Shown here in pieces: positions 9,135-36,671 of a stretch of DNA of 64,000 nucleotides. The stretch comes from Deltaproteobacteria bacterium (GTDB lineage Bacteria > Myxococcota_A > Polyangia > Fen-1088), in contig JANRKS010000009.1 in assembly GCA_033763315.1 (NCBI GenBank), positions 192,001-256,000 of the forward strand. The letters are read 5' to 3'. The notes under the pieces are model-generated. The model made no database searches and was not told the DNA's origin. It saw only the letters and a program-made list of their open reading frames with translations. A program made the translations under genes and the position numbers. The number at the start of each line of letters is the position of its first letter. The stretch's first letter is position 1.

Positions 9135-10148
9135 CTAAGGTGCGGCACAGGCTCGTGCGGTGCACACCACGACGCCGCCGGCGCCACAAACACACTGATT
9201 GCAGCGATCGCCGGCCGGGGCTGTTGCACCCACAGGATACGTCTTGCCGTCGACCAAGCAGGTGCCGTTGTTGCCGAGGCACTGCACCAGTTCGTTCGTT
9301 GGCGTGAAGCCACACTGGCCGTTCTTCTGGCGCTCGCAGGTGGCCTTCTGATAACACGCATATTCGGGCCTGAATTCACAGGTCGAGATCAATGGCGCGT
9401 CAGCGCACAGCTGGCCCGAGCATCCCGTGCGCACGCACTTTTGGGGTGCGGGCTCATCGGGTATGCACAACTTCTTCGTGCACGACACGCCCTCGGGGCC
9501 GCAGGTGCAGGTGTTGCATTTGTCGGTCGAAGGAAAGCTCTCGCCCACCTTGTGCCATTCGCTGTTATAGCTGCAGTAGCTTCCTGTGGCGGCCAAGCAT
9601 GCATCCAACTCTTTGCTGGGGGTGTGGCCGCATTCACCGTTGGCTTGTCGCTCACAAGCTGCCTTGGCGAAGCACGCGTACTCTTCGCGCCACTCGCAGG
9701 TGCTGCCCGCATCACTGCCTTCTTCGACACACAACTGGCCCGAGCAGCCGCCGCGGACACATTTTCGTTGGTCGGGAGCACATGCGATTTCTGTACAGGC
9801 GATGCCGTCTTTTGTGCACGTACATTTGTTGCAGCCATCCAGCGCAGGAAAAGACGCACCCAAACTGAAATTGGTTTTGCCGTCACTGCAGCCGCCTGGG
9901 CCGGGATCGCCGCATGCGATCAGCGTGCAGGCAACGTTGCCATCTTCCCCACACGAACAGGTGTTGCACCCATCGGACGCCGGGAATGACGTGCCGGTTT
10001 TGTGAAAGTCCTTGCCGTCAAAGCAACCTCCGGGGGAAGGATCGGGTTCATCTCCCGAGGGGCAAGCGCCAAGACCCAGCGCCAGCGCGCCCGCGACGGC
10101 AATCTTAACAACGTGGTGCCATGGCAAAGCGAGTCTCTGGTGTTCCAT
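9135..10148 (-). CDS. Cys-rich lipoprotein: four pacifastin-like modules + two eight-cysteine modules
   Basis: Lipobox LGAC; four C..CNxCxC..G..CTxxxC units; two CVRxGCSGQLC..STCE.R.EYAC..A.CERQ.NG.CG..C units. Confidence 0.75.
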   Translation of the reverse strand: MEHQRLALPWHHVVKIAVAGALALGLGACPSGDEPDPSPGGCFDGKDFHKTGTSFPASDGCNTCSCGEDGNVACTLIACGDPGPGGCSDGKTNFSLGASFPALDGCNKCTCTKDGIACTEIACAPDQRKCVRGGCSGQLCVEEGSDAGSTCEWREEYACFAKAACERQANGECGHTPSKELDACLAATGSYCSYNSEWHKVGESFPSTDKCNTCTCGPEGVSCTKKLCIPDEPAPQKCVRTGCSGQLCADAPLISTCEFRPEYACYQKATCERQKNGQCGFTPTNELVQCLGNNGTCLVDGKTYPVGATAPAGDRCNQCVCGAGGVVVCTARACAAP

Positions 10149-10273: not shown

Positions 10274-10909
10274 TCAGAACTCTAAGACGAGGCTCACGGT
10301 CTCAGGCAGGGCGCCCACATACGTCGTTGCCAGCTTTTGGTAGCCGGGCTTGGCAAGCACCTCCACAAGGCAAGTCTGCTGCTCCCTCGTGAGATCCTCT
10401 GCGGGTGGCATAGGCTCAATGCGGTGATCGAAAACAGCTCCGGTTTCAGGTGTGAGTGACGCAGTCCACCGAATGGCGCCTGGCTTCGAGGTGCCCACAA
10501 AGCATTGTGCCAAGCGCTGGCTGCGTGCCGCCACCTGCAGCCGGAAGGCTTCCACCCACGGAGGTTCGAGGGCGTCGTCGGCCTTGTATGGCGTGCGTAG
10601 CCGCTTCGCGATTTTGACTGGACGTTCAGCGCCGCGCTTCGGCTGTGGGTTCATCGTGCTTTTCACTTTAACGACCGCGCCCTGCGCCCCTTTCCGGGGC
10701 GGCGGTGGGTTCACGGAATCGCAACTGCATCGTGAAAGGCAAAGCAAGATGAGCAACAGCAGAGCGGCCCAGATCCGCCGCTGGCGCGCTTTGCGTTTTT
10801 GCACCGCAGGCAACGCGGCCAAGCGCTGAGCCAGTTCGCGGCGTTTGGCGATCATGCGGCGACGCAAGTCCTTGCGTTGGGCGCGCAACGTTTTGCCCGC
10901 GCCGATCAC
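10274..10909 (-). CDS. Bitopic membrane protein with TonB-C/AgmX-PglI-like C-terminal domain (last gene of motor operon)
   Basis: Basic N-terminus, TM (IWAALLLLILLCL), Pro/Lys linker, VAARSQRLAQCF..GAIRWTASL..G.V..QQTCLVEVL; GTG 10909 overlaps upstream TGA. Confidence 0.6.
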   Translation of the reverse strand: MIGAGKTLRAQRKDLRRRMIAKRRELAQRLAALPAVQKRKARQRRIWAALLLLILLCLSRCSCDSVNPPPPRKGAQGAVVKVKSTMNPQPKRGAERPVKIAKRLRTPYKADDALEPPWVEAFRLQVAARSQRLAQCFVGTSKPGAIRWTASLTPETGAVFDHRIEPMPPAEDLTREQQTCLVEVLAKPGYQKLATTYVGALPETVSLVLEF

Positions 10910-12831
10910 TCTGAAAGTTTCCAGCCAAAGATCAGTTGGTTGCGCTTGTTGCGCCACTGCACAGGCATAAGGGTTAGCGGTGCGAACACCGAGGGGGCCT
11001 GCACCTGCGGCGCGAAAAACGGCCAGGGCAATGGATCGGCAGGCGCCAAGCGGACGTTGCCTGTGAAGGTTTGCTTTTCAAGCGCCAAGTTCCGCGACTT
11101 GCCCGTGACGGAGTTGTCAGTGACACCCAAACCGTCCAGCATGGCGCGTGCGCGCACGCCATACTCCTGCGCGGTTCGCATGTTCGACTTGCGCAAGCCG
11201 CCCTCGAAGGAGTCAAGCACAGCCACCACGAGCTTCAACGTGGGAATGTGCGCCTGCCGGACGTCTTTATCCTCAGCCTCCAAGCGGTCCAACAGCTGTC
11301 CCACAAAACGCAAGGCCAAGTGCGGCTCGGTTATCGTTCGTGAACGTATTTGATTCATCACGGCGCTGGCGTTGCCTTGCGCCAAAGGACTCAACGTTGC
11401 GATGCGATCGTCAAGCGCGCTGCCTTTGCGCGCGCTGGCCACGGCGTGCTCGAAGGATGTCTGGTCTGCGCGTAAGGCCGCCTTCCAGATTAGATCCTCT
11501 ACCAAGGCGTTCCATTCTTGACGTGGCACCAGCGCCTGCAACCCAGCCAGCAACTCGTCATTGGTCTCGTAGCGCGACATTACGAACGAGAGCCAGCGCC
11601 GCGCCAGTTTTCGGTTGTCCTCGGCCGCTGACGAATCGTCGGCGTGGGCCATAGCGTACGCAAATGAACGCAAAGCATCTTGCTGCTGACCCGCTTCCAA
11701 GAATGCGACGCCCCGGTGTAAAGCGATGGTCGCGTGTTCGCGAAAACCCTGCTCGGGCGCAAGGGCAAGCAAGCGCTTGCCTCGATCGCCCGCAAATATG
11801 AGCGCGCGGCGCGCAGGCGACTCTTTGGCGTCTGCGTGCGCAATCCACACCTGCACTTCATCCATCATGCCTCGATCAAGAAGACCGTCGATGATCGACA
11901 AAACGAGCGGCGAAACATCTGTGCTGTCGCCCACCAGCGCCCGTGCCTGCGCGAACAAGAACAGGCGGCGCGCACGGCTAAGTGCCAGCCATTCGTCGGC
12001 GTTCCACGTGAGGCTGCGGCGTAAGAATGCCGCCTCCTTGCCGTTCCACCCTGCGTTGTTGGCGAACACTTCATCGGCTGCCACAGCAGATACGCCCAGG
12101 GTTTTGGCCTTCTGCTTCGATTCGCGCGCTTTGGAGCGTGCGCGTTGGCTTTCAAGCTGCGCGATCACAAGGTCAAGATCGAACAGGCGAGCCTCGATCA
12201 CGGACACGCCCGTGAACCTATCGAAAGCCAAGGTCTGCAGCGACGTTTGCAGCAGCTTGCGCAACAGACGCGCGGTGACCAAGCGATCCGCCAGATTCGG
12301 AAACAGCGCGGATGAAATCGATCCGCCCATCTGAAGCATCGCCTTGCGCGGCCATAGGCAATTGGTGCGAAAGAACTCCACAGACCGTAGCTCATCAAGC
12401 GACAACACATCCAGCAAAGACACCAGCCTCTGTTGCCGGCCAACCTCGAAGGCTCCGAAGGGCGGTTCAATGGCGGCAGCGTTGTCGCGCCCCGCGGAGC
12501 GCGTCAGATAGTTGTGCATCGCCAGCGGCCACAACCCTGCGCCGGCATCATCTTTGGGAAAACCGTCCTGGCAAAACCCGAGCTGTCCCAACGCGGCCCA
12601 CACCACAGATCGAAACTCGTTCTCCACTGGGTTTGATGTGGAGGGAGAATGTTGCCTGACGCTGTTCGAGAGCAGCCACAGCTTGAGCGCCTCTTTCGGG
12701 TTCTGCTCGCCCAGCGCCAGCCGCGCGTTATAGAAGATTTCAGTGTGCGCGTTTGGCGGTTGCGCCGCTGCCGTTTGCGTAAACGCGGTGGTCAGCAGCC
12801 ACGTTGTCAACATCAGGACGCGCGGCCGCAT
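10906..12831 (-). CDS. Secreted helical/TPR-like protein (motor operon)
   Basis: Signal peptide from ATG 12831 (TGATG overlap); TPR-like ALHRGVAFLEAGQQQDALRSFAYA; coiled-coil-like segment. Confidence 0.65.
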   Translation of the reverse strand: MRPRVLMLTTWLLTTAFTQTAAAQPPNAHTEIFYNARLALGEQNPKEALKLWLLSNSVRQHSPSTSNPVENEFRSVVWAALGQLGFCQDGFPKDDAGAGLWPLAMHNYLTRSAGRDNAAAIEPPFGAFEVGRQQRLVSLLDVLSLDELRSVEFFRTNCLWPRKAMLQMGGSISSALFPNLADRLVTARLLRKLLQTSLQTLAFDRFTGVSVIEARLFDLDLVIAQLESQRARSKARESKQKAKTLGVSAVAADEVFANNAGWNGKEAAFLRRSLTWNADEWLALSRARRLFLFAQARALVGDSTDVSPLVLSIIDGLLDRGMMDEVQVWIAHADAKESPARRALIFAGDRGKRLLALAPEQGFREHATIALHRGVAFLEAGQQQDALRSFAYAMAHADDSSAAEDNRKLARRWLSFVMSRYETNDELLAGLQALVPRQEWNALVEDLIWKAALRADQTSFEHAVASARKGSALDDRIATLSPLAQGNASAVMNQIRSRTITEPHLALRFVGQLLDRLEAEDKDVRQAHIPTLKLVVAVLDSFEGGLRKSNMRTAQEYGVRARAMLDGLGVTDNSVTGKSRNLALEKQTFTGNVRLAPADPLPWPFFAPQVQAPSVFAPLTLMPVQWRNKRNQLIFGWKLSE

Positions 12832-13634
12832 CAGAACATCCACCCCGCACCCACTGTGGCTTCCCACCACCAGTAGATCTCCGAACCTGTGATCGGCAAC
12901 GCAACCAAAGATCTCCACGTGACGAAGCCACCGCTGCCGAAATAGATGTCCAAGTTCAACCCCGCAAGCGCGTTGAAGCGCCCGCGGTCGATCTGCATGC
13001 CGCCCAGCCGTGCGTCTTCCAATTCTCTTAGTTCGCGGCTTGAAAGCCGAGGCGCAATAAATGACCGCGCCACCTGCGTCACGCTGGCTCCGTCCAAAAC
13101 CTCGGGATAGAACAGATAACGTAAGCAACCCACCGCTGATAGAACAAGCTGCGTGCTTGGCATAAAGCCGGGGCGCGCGGTGCCCACGCCTTCAACCAGC
13201 GGGATGGCCAAACTGGCATCCAACTCGAAACGACTGGGCCGCCCCAGCTGCCGGTAAGGCGTCAACGCCAGCTTGTCAGAGCTTGGGCTGCCCCATGTTT
13301 GCACGCGGGTGATCGACAGCTCGCCCATCCATCCCGAAAGCGGCATCCGTGCGAACAACCCATAACGAGCGCTCTTGAAGTTGTTGAGCTCAAACAGTTG
13401 ACTGCCGATGAGCCCCACGCCGACGCTCTTTTGACGCCAATCAAAGCGCACGGCGCGCGAAGCCACGCCAATCGAACGTTCGCTGAGCAAGCGCTGGCTC
13501 AAGGTGTCGAAAGGCACGCGGTGTTTTTCAATGCTTGTATCGGGTGTGCGTTCTGTTGAAGGTACTGTCTCGGACGCGGGGGCCTGGCGCACGACGCCTA
13601 CGATGAGGGCGCAACACACAACCGCGGCGCGCAC
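12831..13634 (-). CDS. Predicted outer-membrane beta-barrel protein (motor operon)
   Basis: Signal peptide; alternating amphipathic strands; C-terminal ATVGAGWMF with terminal Phe; start GTG 13634 or TTG 13646. Confidence 0.6.
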   Translation of the reverse strand: MRAAVVCCALIVGVVRQAPASETVPSTERTPDTSIEKHRVPFDTLSQRLLSERSIGVASRAVRFDWRQKSVGVGLIGSQLFELNNFKSARYGLFARMPLSGWMGELSITRVQTWGSPSSDKLALTPYRQLGRPSRFELDASLAIPLVEGVGTARPGFMPSTQLVLSAVGCLRYLFYPEVLDGASVTQVARSFIAPRLSSRELRELEDARLGGMQIDRGRFNALAGLNLDIYFGSGGFVTWRSLVALPITGSEIYWWWEATVGAGWMF

Positions 13635-13635
13635 C

Positions 13636-15639
13636 TTAAGGATCAAGGGGAAACCCTCCGTCGGTGGGCACGGGAAAACGCGGACGATAACAGCGCGAAG
13701 CGAAGTTTGGCGAAAAGGCTATGTTGAGGTTGTAGACCCCTGCGGAATCGAAGGTGGGGTGATCACAGAAGCGGCGGCACTGCAAAAGTACGTCGGCGAG
13801 TTTGAACTCTTCGGTTTGCCATAGCTCGGCGCCGTAATAAGACGTGGCCGGAACGCCGAGGCCGAAGGGTGCCGTGGCAGAGAATGCACTGACCGCTCCG
13901 GCGATCACAATTTCGTAATTCATGCGCAACAGAAACGGAAAGTCCCACGCCAGGCCCACTTGGTAAAGGCGTGCGGGCGTCTGGCTTTGGAACATCGGCA
14001 GTTGGGACAAGGGGGCGGGATCTGCGTCGCTTGAGGGTCTGAAGATCACGGCGGAGGCCAGCGTGCGCCTATCGGCGCAATAAGAGAATGAATCCGTGGA
14101 TTCGGCTGTGATTGTCTCGTTGTTGAAGAATGTGCCGGTGCCGAAGTCGCCCAAATCCACGTTCGATGACAGCGGCGTGCGCTCAGGCGCACGAAATTCT
14201 AACCGCACCACCTTGCCCGTCTGTGCCTCACCGTATTTCTTCACAAAGTTCAGATACTGCTGCCGGCTTGGCAGGATAGGCAGGTTCGCGACGCCAAAGG
14301 GCCCGAGTGTCAGTTCGAGATCGTCTGGCAATACAGCGCACGCTTGGCTGGCACCGTTGTTCACTTGATCCAAATCGCCGACGATGTTGGCGGGGCACCA
14401 CAGCACCGACCGAGACACTTCGGTACGCACGACTGTGTAAGCGAAACTATCGAGCACGAACGCACCAGCGAGCCGCGGGGTGCTCTTGTCGCGTTCCGTT
14501 TGCAAAACGTCTTGCAGCGCGCGTTCAACAACGTCCGCGAATTGCCGCGTTTCATCGTCGTGGTGCAACGCCACCGCCAAAACCATGTCCATGCCCTGCG
14601 CCCGCACTTCGTCTACGCGCTTGCGGAAGGTGGTGGCGAGTTCGTCGGCAAAAGTTGGTTGTTGCCAGTCGTCGATACAAATCTGCGGCGCGTCTTGCAG
14701 AACCAGTCGCTGAATCTGCAGCTTGCGATGGGCTTCGTTGATCACGCGGCGGCACGGCTGCAACAAAAAGCCAATCCGTTGTGTCACGCGGATCGGGCTG
14801 CGTAGGGTTGGGAACGCAGAAACCACTTCGGCGTTTTTGCGTGCCAGCGCGGCCGCTGTGAAAGTGCCTGTGGCGTCTGTGACCGTGGCGCTTGCGCAGA
14901 CGCTGCTAGCTTCGCCGGCCAGAACGGGCAAAGAGTTTGCATCGAACACGGCGCGGTCTTTGGTTTCCAACGCGGGCCACCCGAGCGGCTCCAAACCCTC
15001 CGGACACGTAGTGGCAAAAGCATAGCCGTAGGGATTGGTTTCGATTGGCGACGTGGCTTCGCCATATTGTGGCGCTGTGATCGTGAACGAGCGCCGCAAG
15101 CCCAACGCCTGCACTTGTTCGTTGCGCAGCGTAGGAAACTGATGGCGCGCCCGCCATTGCACTCGCGTGTTGGTGGCGTCAAACACGCCGTAAATCAGGA
15201 GGCTGCGGTTGGTGTGGGCCGGGCCGGCTGCAATGACATTCAAATTAACTTTCGGATCCAGTGTCACTTCGCCATCGCGGTGATAACGCAAGCGAATGCC
15301 CACTTGCCGGGGTGGCAAATTCACCGCAAGGCTTGTGCTGCCACAGCGCGCGTTGGGGCCACAATCCACCGGTACGTGCGTGTGCACCGTGGGCAATTGC
15401 GTGATCGGCACCCAAGTCTGATCTTTGTCGTCGGTGCGATAGGTCAGTTCCACGACGCTTGTGGGGCCAAGTCCTTGTTCCGCCTGCACGCGGTAAAATA
15501 CAAACATGGTGGCTTCCTGGGCAAACCACGCCACGTCTGCAACCTCGAAGCGTGCGTTGACGTCGGTGATTGGCACCTTCTCGCACGCCACCCCTGAGGC
15601 GAGGGCGGCGGCACAAGCGAAGAAGGTGACGAACTTCAC
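13636..15639 (-). CDS. Large Cys-containing lipoprotein of unknown function (motor operon)
   Basis: Lipobox GVAC; 667 aa; start codon abuts upstream stop. Confidence 0.7.
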   Translation of the reverse strand: MKFVTFFACAAALASGVACEKVPITDVNARFEVADVAWFAQEATMFVFYRVQAEQGLGPTSVVELTYRTDDKDQTWVPITQLPTVHTHVPVDCGPNARCGSTSLAVNLPPRQVGIRLRYHRDGEVTLDPKVNLNVIAAGPAHTNRSLLIYGVFDATNTRVQWRARHQFPTLRNEQVQALGLRRSFTITAPQYGEATSPIETNPYGYAFATTCPEGLEPLGWPALETKDRAVFDANSLPVLAGEASSVCASATVTDATGTFTAAALARKNAEVVSAFPTLRSPIRVTQRIGFLLQPCRRVINEAHRKLQIQRLVLQDAPQICIDDWQQPTFADELATTFRKRVDEVRAQGMDMVLAVALHHDDETRQFADVVERALQDVLQTERDKSTPRLAGAFVLDSFAYTVVRTEVSRSVLWCPANIVGDLDQVNNGASQACAVLPDDLELTLGPFGVANLPILPSRQQYLNFVKKYGEAQTGKVVRLEFRAPERTPLSSNVDLGDFGTGTFFNNETITAESTDSFSYCADRRTLASAVIFRPSSDADPAPLSQLPMFQSQTPARLYQVGLAWDFPFLLRMNYEIVIAGAVSAFSATAPFGLGVPATSYYGAELWQTEEFKLADVLLQCRRFCDHPTFDSAGVYNLNIAFSPNFASRCYRPRFPVPTDGGFPLDP

Positions 15640-17445
15640 TTAGCCCACAAGCCCCGCGAAGGACAAACGTCCCGACGCCACCAACCGCTTAAGCGCGGCC
15701 ACGAGTTCCTCGTGGGCCCGACGCGCCAGCTGCACTTGCGCCTCAGTCGAGTCGAAGCTGCTGCTCGCCTCAAGCGCGTTCTGCATCGTGGGGGACAGCG
15801 CGGCGACGAAGCGGGCCTTCCACGCGGGCGTCTGCAACGAAGCGTAGGCCGCCAATGCCTTGATATCGACCTGCAACAGCAGATCCGCCTGCAACTCTGC
15901 GGGCACCTTCATCAGCATGTCGGCATGCAAAACGTCGCGGTACCAGGCGGGCAATTCACCGCCCGCGCGGTTGGCCACCGCTTGCACCAGAAGCCGTCGG
16001 TCGTCTTCAGGCACATAGCCCAACAGCACAGACAAAGCTCGTGCCGCATCGAACGGGCGCCCTCGATCTTCGGATAGGTTCGACGGCGGGCGGGGCGGGG
16101 CGGGCAGCGGCTGGCCAGCGCGCGCTGCGTTCAATGCAGCGAACACATACTCGCGGTCTTCTGCCGACATGCGGTTCGAGCTCGACAAAGCGCCCGCCAC
16201 TTGCGAACGCAGTGGAATGGGCAACGCCCGCGCCACTTCGTGCTGCATGTCGTGCGGTGCAAGCGCAAACACCAAAGCCCCCGGACGAGCTGGCAGCGTG
16301 GCCACCAGCTGCGCAATGCCTGCGCTGCCAAATTCATCACGCAAGCTGCGGTAGGTTTGCGCGTCCGCCTGGGCAAGCAACGTCGATGACAGCGCGTGGG
16401 GGCTGAGTTTGCGGAAAAAGGCTGCGTCGCTGGGAAGCTTGTTGGGATCGACGTCACGCATGTATTCGGCAAACGCAACCTTGGCGGCTGCGAGATCACC
16501 TTGCGCAGGGAACGCGTGGGCCAAAGCGTCGCCGAACAACGCCATGGCCTTGGCCAACATCGCGAAGTCACCGGCCATGAGCCACTGCCGCACAAGCTCC
16601 GCCACCATCTCATCTGGCTTATTCGCGCGAATGTTACCCAGACGCGTGTCCCACAGCCGTTGCTGTTCTGCCACGACGGAAGGGTCTTCGCCTTCGCTAG
16701 GTGTTTCGCCTGGCTTGGGATTGCCATCCGGGGTGACCGCGCCGGTGGTGGCCTCGTTTTGCAACTGCGCCAGCAACGCTTTGTCTTGCAGTGACTCGCG
16801 CCCCAGCCGGCGGAGGGCCCAGATGATCACAAGGGCCGCGAGCGTGGCCAAGAAAACCGCAATCATCCATGAAAAATGCGGCAACAGGCTCAGCCACAAC
16901 TCGCGCTTGGCCACCTCGCTTTCCCATTTGACGGGTGGGGGTGGTGGCGGTGCGGGCTCGGCCTTCGGCTTCGCGAGGGGCTCAGGTTTGGGCGGTGGGG
17001 ATTCGCTTAGCGAAGCCGAGATGGGTTCTAGAATCTGCCGCCCCACTGTGACTTTGAGCCAACCTTTTGAGAGCCGCTGTTCAAGCCGACGCACCAACGC
17101 CTGCACATCGCGTGGGCTCACCGATTTTTCATGGGCAAAGTCGCAGCGTGCTTCCGTGAGGTATTCCTGTGCCACAACGCTGCCTGGCCCTTGCTCTTGC
17201 CCCAGGCCCGGAAGCGACGAGGAGCGTGGCAGATCAACCACCGCGTGATCGCGGTAAACGCAGCCCTTCGAGACGCAACGCTCGACGGCGCAGTCGTGCA
17301 TCAACGCCTCATCGAAGTGGCTCTCGAGCGAGCGCAGCTCCGCAAGCACAGGCGAAGGAATATGCTTCTCGGGCACAGGCACGGTTTGCGCCCAGACCGC
17401 GGTTGGCAGGGCTCCAATAACAACGAGCAGCGATAAGTTTTTCAC
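15640..17445 (-). CDS. Membrane-anchored FliG-like rotor protein (signal peptide + periplasmic domain + TM + FliG-M/FliG-C-like domains)
   Basis: C-terminus VLHADMLMKVP..LLLQVDIKALA..RFVAALS..AHEELVAALKRLVASGRL follows FliG-C pattern; GIAQLV..GALVF..EVARALP..RSQVA..NRMS follows FliG-M pattern; directly after motB. Confidence 0.65.
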   Translation of the reverse strand: MKNLSLLVVIGALPTAVWAQTVPVPEKHIPSPVLAELRSLESHFDEALMHDCAVERCVSKGCVYRDHAVVDLPRSSSLPGLGQEQGPGSVVAQEYLTEARCDFAHEKSVSPRDVQALVRRLEQRLSKGWLKVTVGRQILEPISASLSESPPPKPEPLAKPKAEPAPPPPPPVKWESEVAKRELWLSLLPHFSWMIAVFLATLAALVIIWALRRLGRESLQDKALLAQLQNEATTGAVTPDGNPKPGETPSEGEDPSVVAEQQRLWDTRLGNIRANKPDEMVAELVRQWLMAGDFAMLAKAMALFGDALAHAFPAQGDLAAAKVAFAEYMRDVDPNKLPSDAAFFRKLSPHALSSTLLAQADAQTYRSLRDEFGSAGIAQLVATLPARPGALVFALAPHDMQHEVARALPIPLRSQVAGALSSSNRMSAEDREYVFAALNAARAGQPLPAPPRPPSNLSEDRGRPFDAARALSVLLGYVPEDDRRLLVQAVANRAGGELPAWYRDVLHADMLMKVPAELQADLLLQVDIKALAAYASLQTPAWKARFVAALSPTMQNALEASSSFDSTEAQVQLARRAHEELVAALKRLVASGRLSFAGLVG

Positions 17446-18068
17446 TAGTAGATCCTCACAACCACACGGCGGTGTTTCGCCAACCGCTGTTCGGGCGATA
17501 GCCCTGTGACTTGGTCTTGCGGCAAAGGTTTGGTGTCGGCGTAACCCTCCACGCGGATCGCCGAACGGCGTATACCCACGTCTTCCAGGCGCTGCCGGAC
17601 CACGATGGCCCGGGCGCTTGAAAGCTCCCAGTTGCTCGGGAAGGAGCCGCCAGCGATCGGCGTTGAATCGGTGTGGCCCTCGACCGCAAAGTTGTACTTC
17701 TCAGAGTAGGGCGCGATCACTTGCAGCATCGACAGCACAGTGTTCTCAAGCTCAGGACGAATCTTGGCCTTGCCCGAGTCAAACACGAGCCCTGAATTTA
17801 GCGACACTTTGAGGCCATCGTCAGACACATCGGTTTGCACCAAATCCTGCAGCTGCTTTGCCGCGATCTGTGCGTCGATTTCTTTGCGAATCGACTCCAA
17901 GCTGGCTGGGCTTTCACTGCCCGACATACTTTTTACGATCTGTTGCATACGCCCCTTGCTGAGGTTCGCGGCTGTCAGCAGCACCACGAAGAACAGCAGC
18001 AGATTCGTAATGAGGTCGGCGTAGCTCAGCAGCCAGCTTTCCTCGGTCGATTTGGCCCGGCGTTGCAT
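17445..18068 (-). CDS. motB: Flagellar-type stator B subunit (MotB family, OmpA-like PG-binding domain)
   Basis: WLLSYADLITNLLLFFVVL with conserved Asp; LVFDSGKA, VEGHTD, SNWELSSARA, GYADTKP, HRRVVV. Confidence 0.88.
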   Translation of the reverse strand: MQRRAKSTEESWLLSYADLITNLLLFFVVLLTAANLSKGRMQQIVKSMSGSESPASLESIRKEIDAQIAAKQLQDLVQTDVSDDGLKVSLNSGLVFDSGKAKIRPELENTVLSMLQVIAPYSEKYNFAVEGHTDSTPIAGGSFPSNWELSSARAIVVRQRLEDVGIRRSAIRVEGYADTKPLPQDQVTGLSPEQRLAKHRRVVVRIY

Positions 18069-18072
18069 GGCT

Positions 18073-18807
18073 TTACACCGCGCCTGCATCCGCGCGTGGC
18101 GTTCCCGCGCGTGACACGAGTTCGTTTGTGCTCTTCTCAAAGCGCTCAAACAACCCCAATCGTTCATCGAGCAGGTTGTTCAAGAAGTGCCCCACAGGAC
18201 CCGCCACGCCGGCACCGAACGCCACGCCATAGAGCGTGGCTAGAAGTGCCAGCGACATCGACGCTCCGATGTTGAGGTTGTCCGCACTCATGTTCTGAAA
18301 CAGCCGGATCATGCCCGTGATCGTGCCCACCATGCCGAAGGCCGGCCCGAGCTTCGACAGCATCTCCCAGTTGGAGATGGCGGGCTGCCAGCGTGCGATC
18401 TCCTCGTGCCTGAGCTCAAGATAAAGTTTGGCGCTGGCCACTTGCGGCGCGCGACTCAAAAGTAAATCCACCATGCGCCGGCTGGCCTCAAACTGGCTGG
18501 CCTCTGCGACGCTCAACGCTTGGCTGCGCTTGCCCTCGCGCCACAAAGCTTCGATCTGCATGCGTTCGGCATCCATAGAAAGCGTGAGGTGACGAAAACG
18601 CCGCAGGCCTGGAATCAATTCGCGCAGACATGAAATGGTGCGCCGAGCGGTGGCGCCGCTGGAGCTCACCAGAACGGCCGACAGCGATCCCACAAGCACC
18701 ATCACGAGCGCGTGCAGATCAAACGCAGACACAACCTGCGCTTTGCCGCGGTCACCAAAGCCAAACCAGATGACAAACCCTAATAGTAAAATGCCGATGA
18801 TCTGCAC
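18073..18807 (-). CDS. motA: Flagellar-type stator A subunit (MotA/PomA family)
   Basis: Four TMs; FD..AL..V..G in TM2; GPAFGMVGTITG and IGASMSLALLATLYG; WREG loop. Confidence 0.85.
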   Translation of the reverse strand: MQIIGILLLGFVIWFGFGDRGKAQVVSAFDLHALVMVLVGSLSAVLVSSSGATARRTISCLRELIPGLRRFRHLTLSMDAERMQIEALWREGKRSQALSVAEASQFEASRRMVDLLLSRAPQVASAKLYLELRHEEIARWQPAISNWEMLSKLGPAFGMVGTITGMIRLFQNMSADNLNIGASMSLALLATLYGVAFGAGVAGPVGHFLNNLLDERLGLFERFEKSTNELVSRAGTPRADAGAV

Positions 18808-18830
18808 GCTGTGATCCTATGCTCGTGGTG

Positions 18831-19466
18831 TCATTGTTGTTGCTTGTGCAACTCTTCAAGCTTCTTGCGCACGGCGGGATCGCTTTCGATGGATTCCACC
18901 TGCTCGTAGATCTCGATCGCTTTGTCCCGTTCACCCATCATCAGCAGCAGCGACGCCTTGGCGCGCAGAAATTCGGGGTGCAGCTTGTAGCGCTGCAGGA
19001 CCGTTTCACACCACTCCAATGCAAGATCGTAATTGCCGGTTTTGATTGCCTCTTGCATGCGCGTGCGGGCGCGGATGATGCTGACCTCGGGGGCGGCCTG
19101 GTCGATGCGCAAGCCGCGTGCCCTGTACGCTTCGATAAGCGCGTTGTCGCCGGCGGTGGGCGGGGGAGGCACCACGCGCGTGGCGGGGATGGTCTTGACC
19201 TCGCTGCTTCCGGCGCCGTGCTCAATCACAATCCTTTGGCCCGAAGTCAAAACGGGAATATCCACCTCCGTGATGGTGTTGCCGTCGTTCCAGCGCACCT
19301 TCATCACGGTTGTGGACCCAAAGCCAAACGGTCGCGTCAGCGTGCCTTCGTGCTCTTTGAGCGCTGCGTGTTTCTTGGGCGCCGGCTCCAGCACGTAATA
19401 CGTATAGTTGCGTGGGCCGCCGCAGCCGCCTGCGAGAAGCAGCAAGAATATGAATCGTTTCGTCAT
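18831..19466 (-). CDS. TPR-containing lipoprotein (motor operon)
   Basis: Lipobox AGGC; C-terminal TPR pair GNYDLALEWCETVL..LMMGERDKAIEIYEQV. Confidence 0.75.
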   Translation of the reverse strand: MTKRFIFLLLLAGGCGGPRNYTYYVLEPAPKKHAALKEHEGTLTRPFGFGSTTVMKVRWNDGNTITEVDIPVLTSGQRIVIEHGAGSSEVKTIPATRVVPPPPTAGDNALIEAYRARGLRIDQAAPEVSIIRARTRMQEAIKTGNYDLALEWCETVLQRYKLHPEFLRAKASLLLMMGERDKAIEIYEQVESIESDPAVRKKLEELHKQQQ

Positions 19467-19482
19467 GGCTATTCCCTGCGAA

Positions 19483-20454
19483 TCACGGCAAAAACGGCAT
19501 GAAGGTGGAGTTCATAAACGAAAAACCAAGGCCCACGCGTCCGTTCGTGGATGCCGACAAAATAAATCCGAAATTGCTCCGCGCGATGGGAAGCCGCGCC
19601 ATTGCCACCGCCGTCACGAGCGGATCGAGAACCTCAACATCAGAGCCGGCCACGCTGCGCACGATGGCCGTTGGAAAACTCATCAGCAGCTTTCCCCCAA
19701 CCACAATGTTGGCGGCGTTGGGCACAACACGAAAATAGGAACCGCCGATCCCCAACACCGGATCAAAAAGAGAGACCGAAAGCCCTGAAAGATTTGTGTT
19801 GTTGATCCCCCACTGCTCGAGCCAATCGAAAGACACGTGTGGGTTGGGATAGATGGCGAGATCGAAAAACGCGTGGTTCACGCTGTCACCGCGCGAGCGG
19901 CGATCCAGCTCTTCCGCGAGCGCATAACTGTGCCGCGTGCGGGCGCCTTCGGCCAACGCCGGATCGAAATTATCAGCCAAGACGATCCGGCTGTTGCTCA
20001 GATCAATGATGCGCAGTGAGACGCCGTTGGCATTTTCATCAAGCCAGATCGCGGTACGCGCGGGTGCGCCCGTGCCGCGAAACTGGGCGTCCAATCTCAC
20101 GATTTCGTCGATGGTCACACTGGTGGTCGATTGCGACACGCTGCCGTTGTCTTCGACGAACGTGCGCGGTGCCATGCAGGCTTCACACGACCTTAGGTTG
20201 GCAGCGCCAAAGACGCTCACGAGAGCCCCAAGCGCCGCGGTGGGGTACCAAGCCCGTGTCTCCTCAAAGGCGGGGGTGACGCTCACCACGATGGCCGGCA
20301 TGAGGTTCGCCGTTGAGAGGCCCTCGCGCTCGATGCGTGAACGTAGCGTTTCTTCGAGACGGGCCAGCGCATCACGTGAAGTGTCGTTTTGCGCCAGCGC
20401 TTGCGCCGGGACGAGCGCCAAGAACGCTGCAACCACAACGGGGCATGCTTTCAA
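19483..20454 (-). CDS. Secreted alpha/beta (CxxC) domain + predicted beta-barrel, paralog 2 (motor operon)
   Basis: Signal peptide; CEAC; GVSLRIIDLSNSRIVLA; C-terminal amphipathic strands; TTG 20454 overlaps upstream TGA. Confidence 0.65.
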   Translation of the reverse strand: MKACPVVVAAFLALVPAQALAQNDTSRDALARLEETLRSRIEREGLSTANLMPAIVVSVTPAFEETRAWYPTAALGALVSVFGAANLRSCEACMAPRTFVEDNGSVSQSTTSVTIDEIVRLDAQFRGTGAPARTAIWLDENANGVSLRIIDLSNSRIVLADNFDPALAEGARTRHSYALAEELDRRSRGDSVNHAFFDLAIYPNPHVSFDWLEQWGINNTNLSGLSVSLFDPVLGIGGSYFRVVPNAANIVVGGKLLMSFPTAIVRSVAGSDVEVLDPLVTAVAMARLPIARSNFGFILSASTNGRVGLGFSFMNSTFMPFLP

Positions 20455-21647
20455 AAACACAGCGAAGCCTCAACGCCCAGGGACTGAAACGCAAACAGAC
20501 CAACATCGAGGTATTCCCCTATGGCGTTTGCGTTCGTCATGGTTGGCAACGTTTCGAGAAAGGCACCGATGCCGATGCGGTTTTTGACCCGAATCTCCAG
20601 GCCTACGGCAAAAGCTGCAAAGACGGCTTGGGGATCATTGCCCTGCGCCGCCGAAATGAGGTTCGCAAGGTTAGGAAGATCGTCTTGAAAGATCGCGGCG
20701 TTCTTGCCGTAGATGGAAATCACGGAGCCGCCGATGAAGCCATAGATGTCGGGGCTGGTGAGCGAGCTTTCTGAACCCGAAAGCAAGCGCAACGCGCGCG
20801 CCTGCGCCATCCAGCCCACGTGCAACTCTGGTGACCAGGTGGCGCCGACTGTGAAGCGGCCCAGCCACGCCCGCTTTTGCGTCAAGCTGGCTTCCACGCC
20901 GCCCGATAGCCAAACGAACGCAGGGGCGCCCACCGTGTTGCCGCCTGGCGCGTAGGTGCGTACACCGATGTGCAGTGGCACGGCCAAAACACTGCGTCCG
21001 CGTAAAGCATCTAAGTACTCTTGCCGCGCTTCGTTCGCGCTTTTAAGGCGTTCTTCGCTGCGCAAGAGCGCCGGGGTGCCACTGGACGTGGACAGCACTT
21101 TGGCATGAACAATCAGCAGATCTGCGTCTAAGCGTGTGATGCGCGCCCGCAAAACCAGCGAAGCGCCCTCAACCTCGAAGTCCAAGAACAGCGCGTGCCG
21201 GCTGCCGGTGCTCGCGCCCGCTTGGGCCAGCGTTTGGGGCTCTTGTGACCCGCGTGAAATCACAGTGCCTTTGGCACCTGAGCGTACGACCACTGCTGTG
21301 CATTGCGGACAGTGCGCCAGCAGCACATGTGAACGCGGGTTCTTAACGATGAGCGAAGCAAAATGCGTTTCGATCAACGCCTGAAGACCGCTGCCAAAGC
21401 CGACGGGAACGCTGACGTCTGCGAGCACCACGGGCGTGTCTGCGTTGAATGGTGGCTGTTCGTTCCAAGCAAACACCAATTCGTCCAGCAAATCATACGC
21501 TTGCAGCTGAATTTCGCTGGCTACGTCTGCTCGCAACGTTTCGACCTGCGCGCGGTCGACGGCATCGAACGCCTGGTTGTCGCCACGGGCCTGCAGCGAC
21601 AGCAGCAAAGTGGCGGCCGAAGCCCAAAGAACGGCCGCGCGTTTCAC
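20451..21647 (-). CDS. Secreted alpha/beta (CxxC) domain + predicted beta-barrel, paralog 1 (motor operon)
   Basis: Signal peptide; CPQC; SLVLRARITRL..LIVHA; ends LGVEASLCF; GTG 21647 overlaps upstream TGA. Confidence 0.65.
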   Translation of the reverse strand: MKRAAVLWASAATLLLSLQARGDNQAFDAVDRAQVETLRADVASEIQLQAYDLLDELVFAWNEQPPFNADTPVVLADVSVPVGFGSGLQALIETHFASLIVKNPRSHVLLAHCPQCTAVVVRSGAKGTVISRGSQEPQTLAQAGASTGSRHALFLDFEVEGASLVLRARITRLDADLLIVHAKVLSTSSGTPALLRSEERLKSANEARQEYLDALRGRSVLAVPLHIGVRTYAPGGNTVGAPAFVWLSGGVEASLTQKRAWLGRFTVGATWSPELHVGWMAQARALRLLSGSESSLTSPDIYGFIGGSVISIYGKNAAIFQDDLPNLANLISAAQGNDPQAVFAAFAVGLEIRVKNRIGIGAFLETLPTMTNANAIGEYLDVGLFAFQSLGVEASLCF

Positions 21648-22291
21648 CGCAGCCACGTCCACTGTCCGCGGCGGCACAGTCCCGCATGAAGCTGCCCTTC
21701 ACGACCGTCCACAATCATTAACCCCATAAAAACGTGATCGTCACCCAAGACGCCTTGGTCCACATAACGTGCGCAAGCCGTAGGGTAAGATTGCTGCGCC
21801 GGCAAACGCCCCAGCACGGCGATGTCGCCCGCGGCCAAAAGCGGCACCCGGTCAGATACGGTAAGGCCCAACTCCGCCATGTGCGTGCGTGCGGCCACCG
21901 CCACCTTCGCGGCGACGGCTTGATCTGGGTAAAATGCATCCACGTGCCACACCAAAGGGGGCTCGTGCGGCACCTTCGCTCTTGCCGCGGCAACCAATTC
22001 AGCCACGTCTCGCCGCAAGGACGACAGCACCATCTCGTCGCGTGCCGGTCGTTCGCCCTCACGCATGTACAAGCGCTGGCAGTCAAGCGCGTCTACCTGG
22101 GCGCCTGTGGCGCGGGCCGGAGGTTCGGGCACTTGCACCGGATGCCGTGCGTGCGCTTCCGCTGCGGAAATGCGCTGGCATTCCAGGTTGCGCGCCTCTT
22201 GTTTGCCACGCAGCACGCCTGCCGAAGGATCGCTTGTGCGTTCAAGCACGATCACAAACGACATCACCACCAAGAACACCAAGGTTTCCAT
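21644..22291 (-). CDS. N-terminally anchored periplasmic protein of unknown function (motor operon)
   Basis: Hydrophobic N-terminus METLVFLVVMSFVIVL; ATG 2 bp after upstream stop; four Cys. Confidence 0.65.
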   Translation of the reverse strand: METLVFLVVMSFVIVLERTSDPSAGVLRGKQEARNLECQRISAAEAHARHPVQVPEPPARATGAQVDALDCQRLYMREGERPARDEMVLSSLRRDVAELVAAARAKVPHEPPLVWHVDAFYPDQAVAAKVAVAARTHMAELGLTVSDRVPLLAAGDIAVLGRLPAQQSYPTACARYVDQGVLGDDHVFMGLMIVDGREGQLHAGLCRRGQWTWLR

Positions 22292-22293
22292 GG

Positions 22294-23025
22294 CTAAGGC
22301 TGCTCCTTGGCGGGTGGTGCAGCGGCAGGCGCGTCGGCAAAGCTGTGCATCACCCGCGACCTCATCATGGCCGTGAACGTAAGTTGGCTCAGCTGCCTGT
22401 AAAGGTCGCGCGAGAAATCCTGTTGGGCCACGTTGCCCCCGAGCTTCTCGTCGTCTGACCGGACGAGCCAATCGAGCAAGCCATTGACACCCCACACGCC
22501 CAGGCCGAAGTAGCGGATGAATCGGGCCTGCAAAGTGGCGGTGGCCAGCGCAAAACCCTCGCGGTCACGGATGATCACGTCGTGTGCGAAGGTGTATTCA
22601 CCGACGTTCGGCACCAGCGTGAATGTCCAGACGCTGGCGATGCCGAGCAGGAGGCTGCTTTGTTCCGAGACGAGCCGGACCTTGGTGTCAATCGTGAGAT
22701 CGGGCAAACGTTCGGCTGCTTCCGCATCGCCGGTGTCGCGTTCGGATGGGACCAACGTTTGCACATCGGCCCCCTGGTTGCTGAACAGCGTGCTGATCTT
22801 TCGACACAACACCTGCGCCTGGTTGCGGTTTAAATTGTCTTGAGGCAAACAGCGCACGAGGATCTTCTGGCCCGCGAAGTTGTCTTGCTGAAAATCGATG
22901 ACGGTTGGTCGCTGTAGGCCAACCAGCGGCTGATACACGGTCACGCAGCCGCCAAGGCTAGCAACGACGAGGGGCAACAGCGCCATCATGGCTGCGCTGA
23001 AGGGGAGGCCCCGCGCGGCGCTCAA
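22294..23025 (-). CDS. Lipoprotein, first gene of motor operon
   Basis: Lipobox LGGC; internal hydrophobic hairpin LLLGIASVWTFTLVP; start may be TTG 23025 or a slightly later ATG. Confidence 0.7.
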   Translation of the reverse strand: MSAARGLPFSAAMMALLPLVVASLGGCVTVYQPLVGLQRPTVIDFQQDNFAGQKILVRCLPQDNLNRNQAQVLCRKISTLFSNQGADVQTLVPSERDTGDAEAAERLPDLTIDTKVRLVSEQSSLLLGIASVWTFTLVPNVGEYTFAHDVIIRDREGFALATATLQARFIRYFGLGVWGVNGLLDWLVRSDDEKLGGNVAQQDFSRDLYRQLSQLTFTAMMRSRVMHSFADAPAAAPPAKEQP

Positions 23026-36032: not shown

Positions 36033-36671
36033 TTAGGCGGCGCCGCCGCCCTTAGACGATTCTGCCAACAGATTCTCAAGCTTCATCGAGAAGCCTTCCA
36101 AATCGGAGACCTGCTTCTTTGAGGCAGCCGAGAAGAAAGCGTGGGCGATGATGCACGTAACGGCGATCGACAACCCCATGGCCGTGTTGTTCAAAGCTTC
36201 AGAAATACCTTCTGAGAGCACCGCGGTGCGCTCTTCAGGTTTCGCTGCAGCCACAGCGCCGAATGACTTAATCAAACCGGCAACCGTACCCAACAAGCCG
36301 ATCAAGGTGGCGATGTTCGCGATGGACCACAACACCTGGACGCGCTTCTTCAACATAGGGCTAACGTCGACCAACGTTTCCTCGATGGCCTGCGCGATGG
36401 CAAGTTCACCGCGGTGCACGCGCTGAAGAGCTGCTTTGGCAACGTGAGCCACGGGAGCGCCGGTGGCAGAACAGAGCTTCACGGCCCGGTCCACGTTGTT
36501 TGCCAACACGAGCTTGCGAATCTGCTCCAAGAACGCCTTGGCGTTCACGCTGGCTTTCACCAGGAAGTAGATCGCCCTGTCCACGATGATCGCGATGGTG
36601 ACCACCGAGCACAGGAGGTTGATGTACATGAAGAAGCCGCCCTTCTCCAAAAACTCCGAAATTGCTTGCAT
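36033..36671 (-). CDS. TolQ/ExbB family proton channel (AglR-like)
   Basis: Three TMs; ATLIGLLGTVAGLI..F; GISEALNNTAMGL; GAGGA RBS. Confidence 0.88.
   Translation of the reverse strand: MQAISEFLEKGGFFMYINLLCSVVTIAIIVDRAIYFLVKASVNAKAFLEQIRKLVLANNVDRAVKLCSATGAPVAHVAKAALQRVHRGELAIAQAIEETLVDVSPMLKKRVQVLWSIANIATLIGLLGTVAGLIKSFGAVAAAKPEERTAVLSEGISEALNNTAMGLSIAVTCIIAHAFFSAASKKQVSDLEGFSMKLENLLAESSKGGGAA

Follow-up and report, generated by a model that had tools for sequence, protein, structure and literature searches.

A natural membrane-anchored FliG-like protein encoded beside a MotAB-type stator pair in a conserved non-flagellar gene cluster of Myxococcota

Torque in the bacterial flagellum is generated at the contact between FliG and MotA, and the EHPQR motif of the FliG middle domain is the binding site for FliM. 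Several other envelope systems, among them Agl-Glt gliding, Nfs, Tol-Pal and the Bacteroidetes GldLM/type 9 secretion system (T9SS), are encoded by clustered genes in which an ion-driven motor is accompanied by TPR lipoproteins, periplasmic proteins and β-barrel-like proteins; to our knowledge, these systems use TolQR/ExbBD-like or GldLM motors, without a FliG-like partner. Here we describe a gene from a 64,000-nucleotide stretch of a deltaproteobacterial genome (contig JANRKS010000009.1, positions 192,001 to 256,000; hereafter the window), the product of which, P0001, carries a FliG-like region behind a small periplasmic domain and a transmembrane (TM) helix. The gene lies beside genes for a MotA/MotB-type stator pair.

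FliG is a soluble protein of about 340 amino acids (aa), whereas P0001 has 601 aa and is membrane-anchored, with a signal peptide, a TM helix and a periplasmic domain; the two proteins are alike in their middle (M) and C-terminal (C) domains, which are colinear by structure and by bridged profiles. Unlike FliG, P0001 is not encoded in a flagellar operon, and the window's genome has a separate true FliG. FliF–FliG fusions engineered in Salmonella and Vibrio are described as assembling rings (PMC6079021, PMC11481574, 10.1101/2023.02.06.527414); P0001, in contrast to these, is natural and non-flagellar. We favour, with some reserve, the view that P0001 is the stator-facing, possibly ring-forming part of an undescribed non-flagellar machine driven by MotAB.

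A FliG-like cytoplasmic half and its stator pair

The N terminus of P0001, MKNLSLLVVIGALPTAVWA/QT, reads like a Sec signal peptide, and a hydrophobic stretch stands at this place in all 30 aligned homologues. Behind it, the AlphaFold2 (AF2) model of the whole protein (mean predicted local distance difference test score (pLDDT) 73) builds a periplasmic domain from a helix at residues 31–51, strands at 57–70 and 93–106 (the latter with RCDFAH inside), a helix at 111–125 (PRDVQALVRRLEQRL) and a strand at 130–139 (KVTV). The four cysteines of this domain, C52, C57, C62 and C101, recur without exception in 64 of 64 aligned periplasmic domains. A Pro-rich stretch (141–175; pLDDT low over 141–167) leads to the TM helix, whose LLPHF.WM...IW..RR motif is invariant in the homologue alignment and which lies within a long model helix (176–232). 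The cytoplasmic part, residues 212–601 (390 in all), is all-helical in the model. P0001 is a bitopic inner-membrane protein. The first-pass annotation of this gene had listed the same parts (signal peptide, Cys-containing periplasmic domain ending β-α-β, Pro-rich linker, one TM helix, about 390 cytoplasmic residues), and each of these parts, the β-α-β ending included, agrees with the sequence and the model.

The cytoplasmic half resembles FliG in structure. A Foldseek search with the whole model gave two matches at E ≤ 0.001, both to FliG, and ranks 1–10 were all FliG; MgtE appeared at rank 42 (E 0.44), far below FliG. The top 11 rows of VIA-align were likewise all FliG and run colinearly through M and C: 3ajc (Z 10.9) pairs model residues 360–599 with FliG 105–325, and 1lkv (Z 10.5, root-mean-square deviation (rmsd) 3.7, 120 residues aligned) pairs residues 464–598 with FliG 196–327. 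The likeness is not limited to an MgtE-N-type or generic ARM repeat, the outcome that the first-pass annotation had named as refuting its reading, as the C-terminal 135 residues superpose on 1lkv. For helical repeats, however, Z values below about 13 can reflect a common arrangement, and owing to this warning we sought sequence bridges to FliG.

A profile of P0001 and its relatives (family A) aligned with 20 true FliGs colinearly over 201 columns (hhalign, E 0.0018; 368–607 against 122–336). A second bridge runs through a paralogous myxobacterial family, family B, found by a FliG_C search of Archangium and Hyalangium genomes. The alignment of families A and B spans 493 columns and reaches from the Cys motif in the periplasm to the C terminus (hhalign, 95.4%, E 1.7e-8). 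Family B in turn aligns with true FliG at 70.3%, and its profile, with matches across both M and C, reaches nine solved FliG chains in the PDB at E ≤ 0.01 (best 2.3e-6). The family B member of Archangium gephyra, P0391, passes the Pfam gathering score for FliG_C (30.7 versus 23.3 bits). We consider homology of P0001 residues ~360–601 to FliG M and C well supported: this half is distantly homologous to the two domains and shares their ancestor. The segments that had been matched to FliG by eye in the first-pass annotation also fall where expected when aligned with true FliG by hhalign, with GIAQLVATLPARPGALVFAL on the EHPQ-bearing segment of FliG_M, LLLQVDIKALA on the 'REVD..L' segment and KRLVASGRL on 'LAEQGRIT'. 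Its assignment of the cytoplasmic half to FliG-M plus FliG-C thus holds by structure searches and by bridged sequence homology.

Several results count against this kinship. Taken alone, P0001 stays below threshold in the hidden Markov model comparison with FliG_M and FliG_C that the first-pass annotation had proposed as a check: Pfam FliG_C (PF01706) gives E 0.21 and 12.3 bits, versus a gathering score of 23.3, over residues 510–595, and neither FliG_C nor FliG_M is reached at E ≤ 0.01 by any of 30 family A members. MgtE_N (PF03448) scores slightly higher on P0001, also below its cut-off (E 0.065, 14.2 versus 25.9 bits, residues 375–421), and is the only Pfam family reached by family A members (21 of 30 at E ≤ 0.01, best 2.1e-9); among ten distant full-length relatives, five match only MgtE_N, below cut-off, and five match nothing. 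The probability of the direct family A–FliG alignment is only 14.6%, and the family A profile matches no PDB sequence at E ≤ 10, hence no solved FliG. An exhaustive search of 1.84 billion representative proteins with the same profile yielded 168 representative clusters at E ≤ 0.001, so family A is narrow; the 150 of these matches that were listed all appear, by matched range, to be family A members or fragments, and none is recognisably of canonical FliG length.

One functional site of FliG is also missing, and a second appears to be. The EHPQR motif, which the first-pass annotation already could not recognise, is absent: hhalign places LPARPGALVF there in P0001, LppR.gALLF in the family A consensus and REQPQTVALVL in the true FliG of the window's genome. 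For the torque helix of Escherichia coli FliG, the charged residues R281, D288 and D289 are named in 10.1101/2024.07.22.604496. The acidic pair falls in a 13-residue gap of the direct family A–FliG alignment, the register of which differs from that of the route through family B; along the chain from family A through family B to FliG, it corresponds to A-N in family A and to an invariant E-E in family B. Neither route shows the acidic pair in family A, and the classical electrostatic MotA–FliG contact therefore appears not to be conserved. Because P0001 lacks the EHPQR motif and seems to lack the acidic pair of the torque helix, we call it FliG-like and not a FliG orthologue.

Further towards the membrane, the likeness fades. 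The four-helix region (model helices 255–275, 279–291, 294–309 and 316–330) is possibly FliG_N/helix-NM-like. FliG alignments touch only its end (8umx_B, model 333–601 against FliG 67–328) and start no earlier than FliG residue 67; Pfam gives no FliG_N match in P0001 or in 30 family members.

The MgtE_N matches do not argue against FliG, because true FliGs likewise match this Pfam family. We also considered a reading of P0001 as an MgtE transporter and rejected it: P0001 has only the sub-threshold MgtE_N match and a single TM helix, whereas MgtE combines a CBS pair with a transporter domain, and no CBS or MgtE match was found in P0001.

In 71 of 71 loci, those with at least 1.5 kb of upstream sequence among 80 named loci, the P0001 gene directly follows genes for MotA-like and MotB-like proteins on its own strand. 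In the window, the GTG start of P0001 and the TAG stop of the MotB-like gene overlap by one base. Pfam recognises MotB_plug (7.9e-14) and OmpA (8.9e-15) in the MotB-like protein, and the NCBIfam MotD/MotB models match it at 7.5e-36 and 1.7e-32, below their equivalog cut-offs; 86 of 86 sequences keep the channel Asp in WLLSYADLITNLL. Homologue matches begin at residue 33–34, and the real start is probably M34, near position 18068. The MotA-like protein matches eight PDB sequences at E ≤ 0.001, and all eight are flagellar MotA or PomA. The pair thus resembles flagellar MotAB/PomAB in its MotA_ExbB, MotB_plug and OmpA domains and its channel Asp, and differs from them in falling far below the NCBIfam equivalog cut-offs and in belonging to a non-flagellar cluster. 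A plug with linker, an OmpA-related anchor and an enlarged MotA cytoplasmic domain are presented in PMC12505986 as hallmarks of flagellar stators.

Phylogeny supports this assignment. In a maximum-likelihood tree of 47 MotA/TolQ/ExbB rows, drawn from five genomes and several loci, ten cluster MotAs, one family B MotA and three flagellar MotAs split from 33 paralogues with ultrafast bootstrap (UFboot) 100 and Shimodaira–Hasegawa-like approximate likelihood-ratio (SH-aLRT) 99 support, a split found in 100% of 200 bootstrap trees. Within these 14 rows, the cluster MotAs form their own clade (92/90), apart from the flagellar MotAs. The groups were named after a quick tree had been seen, the labels of two of the flagellar rows come from the best BLAST hit only, family B sits on a long branch and the root is arbitrary. 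With these limits, the cluster MotAs group with flagellar MotA and not with the TolQ/ExbB/AglR-type paralogues; the pair is flagellar in type yet dedicated to its cluster, not to a flagellum. The window's genome has 14 MotA/TolQ/ExbB-family genes in all. Another of these lies in the window at 36033–36671 on the minus strand and encodes 212 aa (91.2 bits to PF01618, at G000:C9:228096-228455); its product falls among the TolQ/ExbB-like paralogues of the tree, not with the cluster MotA. A Zorya (ZorAB) defence system was considered and rejected, as PADLOC gives only ZorB-like matches on the MotB-like protein and no match on the MotA-like protein, P0001 or the 667-aa protein encoded downstream.

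Family B repeats the arrangement. P0391 (576 aa) has a signal peptide, a periplasmic domain with a CPEQC motif, a Pro-rich linker, a TM helix and a helical cytoplasmic part, and its gene stands directly behind its own TPR, MotA-like and plug-plus-OmpA MotB genes (triad at L129:7752-10912, the Archangium gephyra record; also near G492:C1:3124404-3126647). Families A and B share this architecture and gene order. They differ in that family B has two conserved cysteines versus four, and an invariant E-E at the FliG acidic pair, where neither alignment route shows an acidic pair in family A. Members of family B occur in Archangium, Cystobacter and Aggregicoccus under the automatic name 'FliG C-terminal domain-containing protein' only. 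By tblastn, the cluster proteins of the window find MotB, MotA and, weakly, the 408-aa protein (E 7e-4) at the family B locus, and nothing else; the family B downstream genes do not match the cluster proteins of the window. Two genes downstream of P0391 lies a gene for a 627-aa protein with matches to Big_7 (Ig-like), CarboxypepD_reg, FlgD_ig and an SQHop_cyclase-like family.

A ring-building-motif-like fold in the periplasm

Modelled by itself from 64 sequences (pLDDT 85.9), the periplasmic domain of P0001 has a helix at positions 7–27, strands at 33–46 and 69–81, a helix at 87–101 and a strand at 106–114. This is the α-β-β-α-β fold of a ring-building motif (RBM), a topology that is common to other families. 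A VIA search of 48,161 chains put the RBM3 of FliF first (8z5v_A, Z 8.6, rmsd 6.7, 112 of 124 residues aligned), and the list also holds Salmonella FliF (6scn_A, Z 8.0), SpoIIIAG (Z 6.1) and the type III secretion ring protein CdsD (Z 6.1); all these Z values are middling by VIA's own calibration. P0001 and FliF share an order of parts, an RBM-like domain, a TM helix and a FliG-like region, which corresponds to RBM3–TM2–FliG in the flagellar rotor. FliF is larger, with RBM1–3, a β-collar and two TM helices where P0001 has one small domain and one TM helix, and P0001 has a putative cleavable signal peptide where FliF has TM1. Unlike FliF, P0001 has four invariant cysteines, is non-flagellar and lacks a YscJ_FliF match (PF01514/PF08345, Pfam, E ≤ 1).

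The proposal that this half is FliF-like, made in the first-pass annotation, stands in part. In its favour are the fold and the first rank of RBM3. Against it, the C-terminal domain (CTD) of MamM ties with RBM3 (Z 8.5, rmsd 2.0, 76 residues aligned), as do OsmC-like folds; Foldseek returns no match to the isolated domain at E ≤ 0.001, its best rows being OsmC/Ohr (3.3e-3) and then the FliF MS ring (8.5e-3); and hhalign of the domain alignment with 25 FliF RBM3 regions reaches only 0.6% (E 0.1, 21 columns). P0001 thus has the fold and part order of a 'mini FliF end', and membership of the FliF family is not supported by sequence.

Prediction of a complex of four copies of the domain gave a median score of 0.50, versus 0.00 for the best control, and passed the mark of the tool, which 20 of 30 solved homo-pairs and one of 23 solved single chains reach; contacts agree between runs to at least 70%, with a partner pLDDT of at least 74. 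In the predicted complex the contacts run head-to-tail, one copy meeting two neighbours through two different faces, as an open-ended lateral array or ring would need. Four copies are too few for a closed ring to show. Ring formation, which the first-pass annotation had put forward as something the protein could do, is plausible on this prediction. Two points stand against it: the calibration was made with two copies and the run here with four, and the predicted interface is not enriched in positions conserved to at least 90% (11 of 38 versus 24 of 86).

A different account of the outer half makes the domain a redox or metal sensor or a dimerisation module, OsmC/Ohr-like or similar to the CTD of cation-diffusion facilitators, in a dimeric protein. 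We consider this rather unlikely. It would fit the four invariant cysteines, the best Foldseek rows, the lack of sequence homology to FliF and the tighter superposition on the CTDs of MamM, MamB and CzcD (rmsd 2.0–2.8 Å over 76–82 residues, versus 6.7 Å over 112 for FliF). However, RBM3 ranks first of the 48,161 chains, and the FliF chains give the longest alignments among the matches listed (112, 112 and 108 residues), the long hairpin included; SpoIIIAG and CdsD appear in the same list; the four-copy contacts are open-ended through two faces and do not close into a dimer; and the domain directly precedes a TM helix that leads into a FliG-like region, as in RBM3–TM2–FliG. The two accounts bear on the outer half only, and a redox or metal module is compatible with a stator-facing, FliG-like inner half. 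In our preferred reading, the periplasmic half is an RBM-like domain stabilised by disulfides or metal.

A conserved envelope cluster in Myxococcota

The P0001 gene is one of twelve genes (positions 10274 to 23025 of the window, Table 1) that are all on the minus strand and colinear, each present in 11 or 12 of 12 compared loci from diverse genomes of the phylum. The cluster occurs in Archangium, Hyalangium, Cystobacter and other Myxococcota. Together with the MotA/MotB pair, which, like the cluster, is missing from the first-pass annotation, it carries most of the functional argument.

Table 1. Genes of the cluster and parts of P0001, with positions in the window
Feature	Position	Strand	Basis or remark
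Four upstream cluster genes	19483..23025	minus	each colinear in 11/12 loci
TPR lipoprotein, LLAGGC lipobox	18831..19466	minus	Pfam TPR_19 8.5e-6; 11/12 loci
MotA-like stator A subunit, 4 hydrophobic spans, ~100-aa cytoplasmic loop	18073..18807	minus	Pfam MotA_ExbB 1.9e-15
MotB-like stator B subunit, plug and OmpA-like peptidoglycan-binding domain	17445..18167	minus	Pfam, NCBIfam
P0001 gene, 601 aa, GTG start	15640..17445	minus	open reading frame (ORF) and translation
P0001 signal peptide, residues 1–19	17389..17445	minus	read from sequence; putative cleavage after VWA
P0001 periplasmic α-β-β-α-β domain, residues 30–140, four invariant Cys	17026..17358	minus	AF2 model, structure search, alignment
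P0001 Pro-rich periplasmic linker and juxtamembrane helix, residues 141–185	16891..17025	minus	sequence, alignment
P0001 single TM helix, residues ~186–211, then RR (cytoplasmic side)	16813..16890	minus	motif and model
P0001 cytoplasmic variable linker (~226–255) and four-helix region (255–359)	16369..16812	minus	AF2 model
P0001 FliG middle-domain-like ARM region, residues 360–463, LPARPG replacing EHPQR	16057..16368	minus	VIA, hhalign
P0001 FliG C-terminal-domain-like region, residues 464–601	15643..16056	minus	VIA, bridged profiles
667-aa Cys-rich secreted or lipoprotein gene	13636..15639	minus	start abuts P0001 stop
Three further downstream cluster genes	10274..13646	minus	each in 11/12 loci

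The four upstream genes encode proteins of 325 aa (signal peptide), 408 aa (signal peptide, C-terminal ...SLCF), 283 aa (an ORF with one TM helix) and 243 aa (lipoprotein-like). On the other side, the gene for the 667-aa protein begins at the base right after the P0001 stop codon and follows P0001 on the same strand in 73 of 73 loci with enough downstream sequence among the 80 named loci. Beyond it come genes for proteins of 271 aa (signal peptide, ending GAGWMF), ~641 aa (secreted, helical; gene start likely near 12831) and 227 aa (one TM helix). The last residue of two signal-peptide proteins of the cluster is aromatic, a common trait of outer-membrane barrels, and the 271-aa protein looks, from its sequence, like an outer-membrane β-barrel. 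Eight other cluster proteins have no Pfam or NCBIfam family, and a search of PDB sequences with the 667-aa and ~641-aa proteins gave nothing below E 0.28. A reading of the 667-aa protein as glycoside-hydrolase-like DUF4434 was dropped and not used, its best ESM Atlas score of 0.81 being at chance level.

The layout of the cluster, an inner-membrane motor with a TPR lipoprotein and periplasmic and barrel-like proteins, is shared with Agl-Glt, Nfs, Tol-Pal and GldLM, and the motor is different, being MotAB-type and unlike the TolQR/ExbBD-like or GldLM motors found there. No cluster protein matches a Pfam or NCBIfam model of Agl-Glt, Nfs, Tol-Pal or GldLM/T9SS. By the same two libraries, none of the 12 genes matches a flagellar structural family and none is FliM/FliN-like, in agreement with the suggestion of the first-pass annotation that the motor lacks a chemotaxis switch.

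The surroundings of the cluster vary. One locus, L036 (G233:C39), has the triad and the downstream genes, and a search of its 20-kb stretch detected no copy of the five upstream cluster genes. Just outside the cluster of the window (9135-10148, minus strand), a 337-aa ORF has four stretches matching Pacifastin_I inhibitors (8.4e-20) and VWC-like matches, both families known mainly from animals; it is not conserved beside the cluster in the 12 loci compared. On the other flank, at 25813-28584 on the minus strand, a 923-aa protein has many TPR matches and a Peptidase_MA_2 stretch, and the interval that separates it from the cluster has genes for an aminotransferase and an amino-acid permease; at other loci, these three genes are not conserved next to the cluster.

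In a word-index search, 253 proteins match P0001 at E ≤ 0.001; the best 120 of these share 52–99% identity with it, have 594–650 aa and are mostly without names, and one relative bears the UniRef name 'FliG C-terminal domain-containing protein'. Homologues were found in four of 89 genomes of the window's own order and in 27 of 401 sampled genomes of the phylum. Named carriers include Archangium, Hyalangium, Cystobacter, many metagenome-assembled genomes (MAGs) of Myxococcaceae, Bradymonadia, and MAGs of Polyangiaceae and Silvanigrellaceae; the closest among the matches listed, in a scan that may omit the window's own genome, is a Polyangia MAG at 69% identity. A look through sequencing runs for this locus listed no RNA data set, and three DNA data sets with small shares (0.06–0.12). 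A decayed-looking copy, in pieces broken by several TGA, TAG and TAA stops, lies at G182:C1:1786400-1788091 in a 1.8-Mb genome of the same class as the window's genome. At a further locus (L031, G488:C44:71370-72992), the match to P0001 ends at about residue 561 inside a 1141-aa open frame, and the 20-kb stretch gave no match to the four cluster genes that lie downstream of P0001; a gene fusion or a variant of the cluster may explain this.

Rotor or adaptor

If P0001 works with the stator encoded beside it, the following sequence of events can be proposed. Its periplasmic domains would pack head-to-tail into a ring or arc, lining up the FliG-like domains under the membrane. Ion flow through wall-anchored MotAB units would be converted into a force that acts on the FliG_C-like domain. 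The TM and periplasmic parts would move as a result, and this motion would be passed to the 667-aa Cys-rich protein, the TPR lipoprotein, the ~641-aa helical protein and the β-barrel-like proteins, which would do mechanical work in the envelope. Such a machine would operate without a FliM/FliN switch, rod, hook or export apparatus. That P0001 is a true ring rotor we rate a little short of even. Tentatively, and with somewhat less weight still, we suggest a self-contained non-flagellar rotary motor in which one polypeptide serves as both MS-ring (through its RBM-like domain) and C-ring (through its FliG-like torque acceptor), is driven by its own lineage of MotAB stators with plug and OmpA domains and turns an envelope-spanning assembly in Myxococcota, gliding genera among them, and some Bdellovibrionota. 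There is a real chance that this is a new kind of rotary machine. A point against a stator-driven machine in general is that the cluster encodes no rod, hook, axle, export apparatus or known output component; together with the apparent loss of the classical charge pair, this limits our confidence both in the stator-facing role and in a ring rotor.

Chief among the rival accounts is one in which P0001 does not rotate and serves as an adaptor or regulator in a TolQR-like energy transducer. In this static scaffold, the FliG/MgtE_N-like region would recruit, gate or brake the MotAB-like channel or would sense a cytoplasmic ligand (such as Mg2+, as the N domain of MgtE does), with no rotation; the stator would work like TolQR/ExbBD through MotB or the periplasmic proteins, and P0001 would be the adaptor between them. 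We think this improbable on balance, with enough in its favour to be weighed seriously. The missing EHPQR motif, the apparent loss of the acidic pair, the lack of an encoded rod or axle, the ordinary conservation of the predicted interface residues and the standing of MgtE_N as the one Pfam family that members reach (21 of 30) all suit a scaffold. On the other hand, the MgtE_N match does not separate the two possibilities, as true FliGs carry it too; the best structural matches are to FliG, its C domain included, with MgtE at rank 42 (E 0.44); the stator belongs to the flagellar-like lineage with plug and OmpA, not to TolQR/ExbBD; and the periplasmic domains are predicted to self-associate head-to-tail. 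A stator-facing part of a MotAB-driven machine remains our preferred reading of P0001.

It is highly improbable that the locus is an accessory or spare FliG–stator set that serves the true flagellum of the organism. Flagellar parts are indeed encoded elsewhere in the window's genome, in a set that looks complete: contig C22 (~95.6–109 kb) carries a true FliF–FliG–FliH–FliI set, its FliG having 343 aa (FliG_C 131.6 bits) and its FliH being FliH-like, and a second plug-bearing MotB with its MotA, and FliM is encoded on C27:26397-26984. A FliF C-terminal-domain match occurs in 47 of 121 genomes of the phylum sample, and at least five other cluster-bearing genomes (G102, G183, G184, G194 and G198) have FliF. 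Several lines of evidence nevertheless place the cluster outside the flagellum. First, it lies on contig C9, away from the flagellar genes on C22 and C27, and none of its 12 genes matches a flagellar structural family. The presence of a separate flagellar set in the window's genome makes the cluster an extra system.

Second, the same gene order is found in Archangium, Hyalangium and Cystobacter, which glide and are not known to have flagella. Four Archangium and Hyalangium genomes show no canonical FliG, their FliG_C matches being family B genes or a sub-threshold match of 22.8 bits, and all six of their MotB_plug genes stand beside a family A or family B gene (in Hyalangium, by matching coordinates). 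Third, each of these four genomes has one short SctJ-like FliF-family match (a frame of ~270–310 aa) within ~6 kb of its single FliM-family match, whose frame of ~480 aa is SctQ-like; examples are G491:C20:10299-17376 in Hyalangium and G490:C1:8652768-8659313 in Archangium. This locus is probably type-III-secretion-like, with a FliG_C-like component in Hyalangium, where the 22.8-bit FliG_C match lies right beside the SctJ/FliM-family pair.

That P0001 is a generic helical-repeat membrane protein, with both its FliG likeness and its MotAB neighbours owed to chance, is barely credible: P0001 alone is indeed below all Pfam cut-offs and the helical Z scores are middling, but FliG fills the first 10 Foldseek and the first 11 VIA rows, family B provides a homology bridge to FliG, the MotAB pair is present in 71 of 71 loci and a second, independent MotA–MotB–FliG_C triad exists.

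Two related triads, each of MotA, a plug-plus-OmpA MotB and a membrane-anchored FliG-like protein, are thus present in non-flagellar envelope clusters. If the triads are true rotary motors, families A and B would be a sister group or early offshoot of the flagellar rotor–stator pair, and the origin of the FliG–MotA interface would become experimentally approachable outside the flagellum. A working motor would also offer a much simpler rotor–stator pair to dissect and, for reconstructions of the origin of the flagellar motor, an outgroup or offshoot, and it would point to an envelope function of a new sort in predatory, developmentally complex bacteria. If P0001 is only a scaffold, FliG-type domains and plug-bearing stators would still be in use outside flagella.

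Within the literature covered, which excludes subscription journals, we found no paper on a membrane-anchored FliG-like protein with a non-flagellar MotAB pair. Already known are the automatic labels 'FliG C-terminal domain-containing protein' on some relatives, and these myxobacterial stators may already figure in the protein lists of PMC12505986. Leads from the ESM Atlas, not confirmed by sequence, consist of proteins of 480–720 aa with FliG_C/FliG_M, some with YscJ_FliF_C, from Bdellovibrionota, Bacteroidota, Balneolota, Elusimicrobiota and Pseudomonadota.

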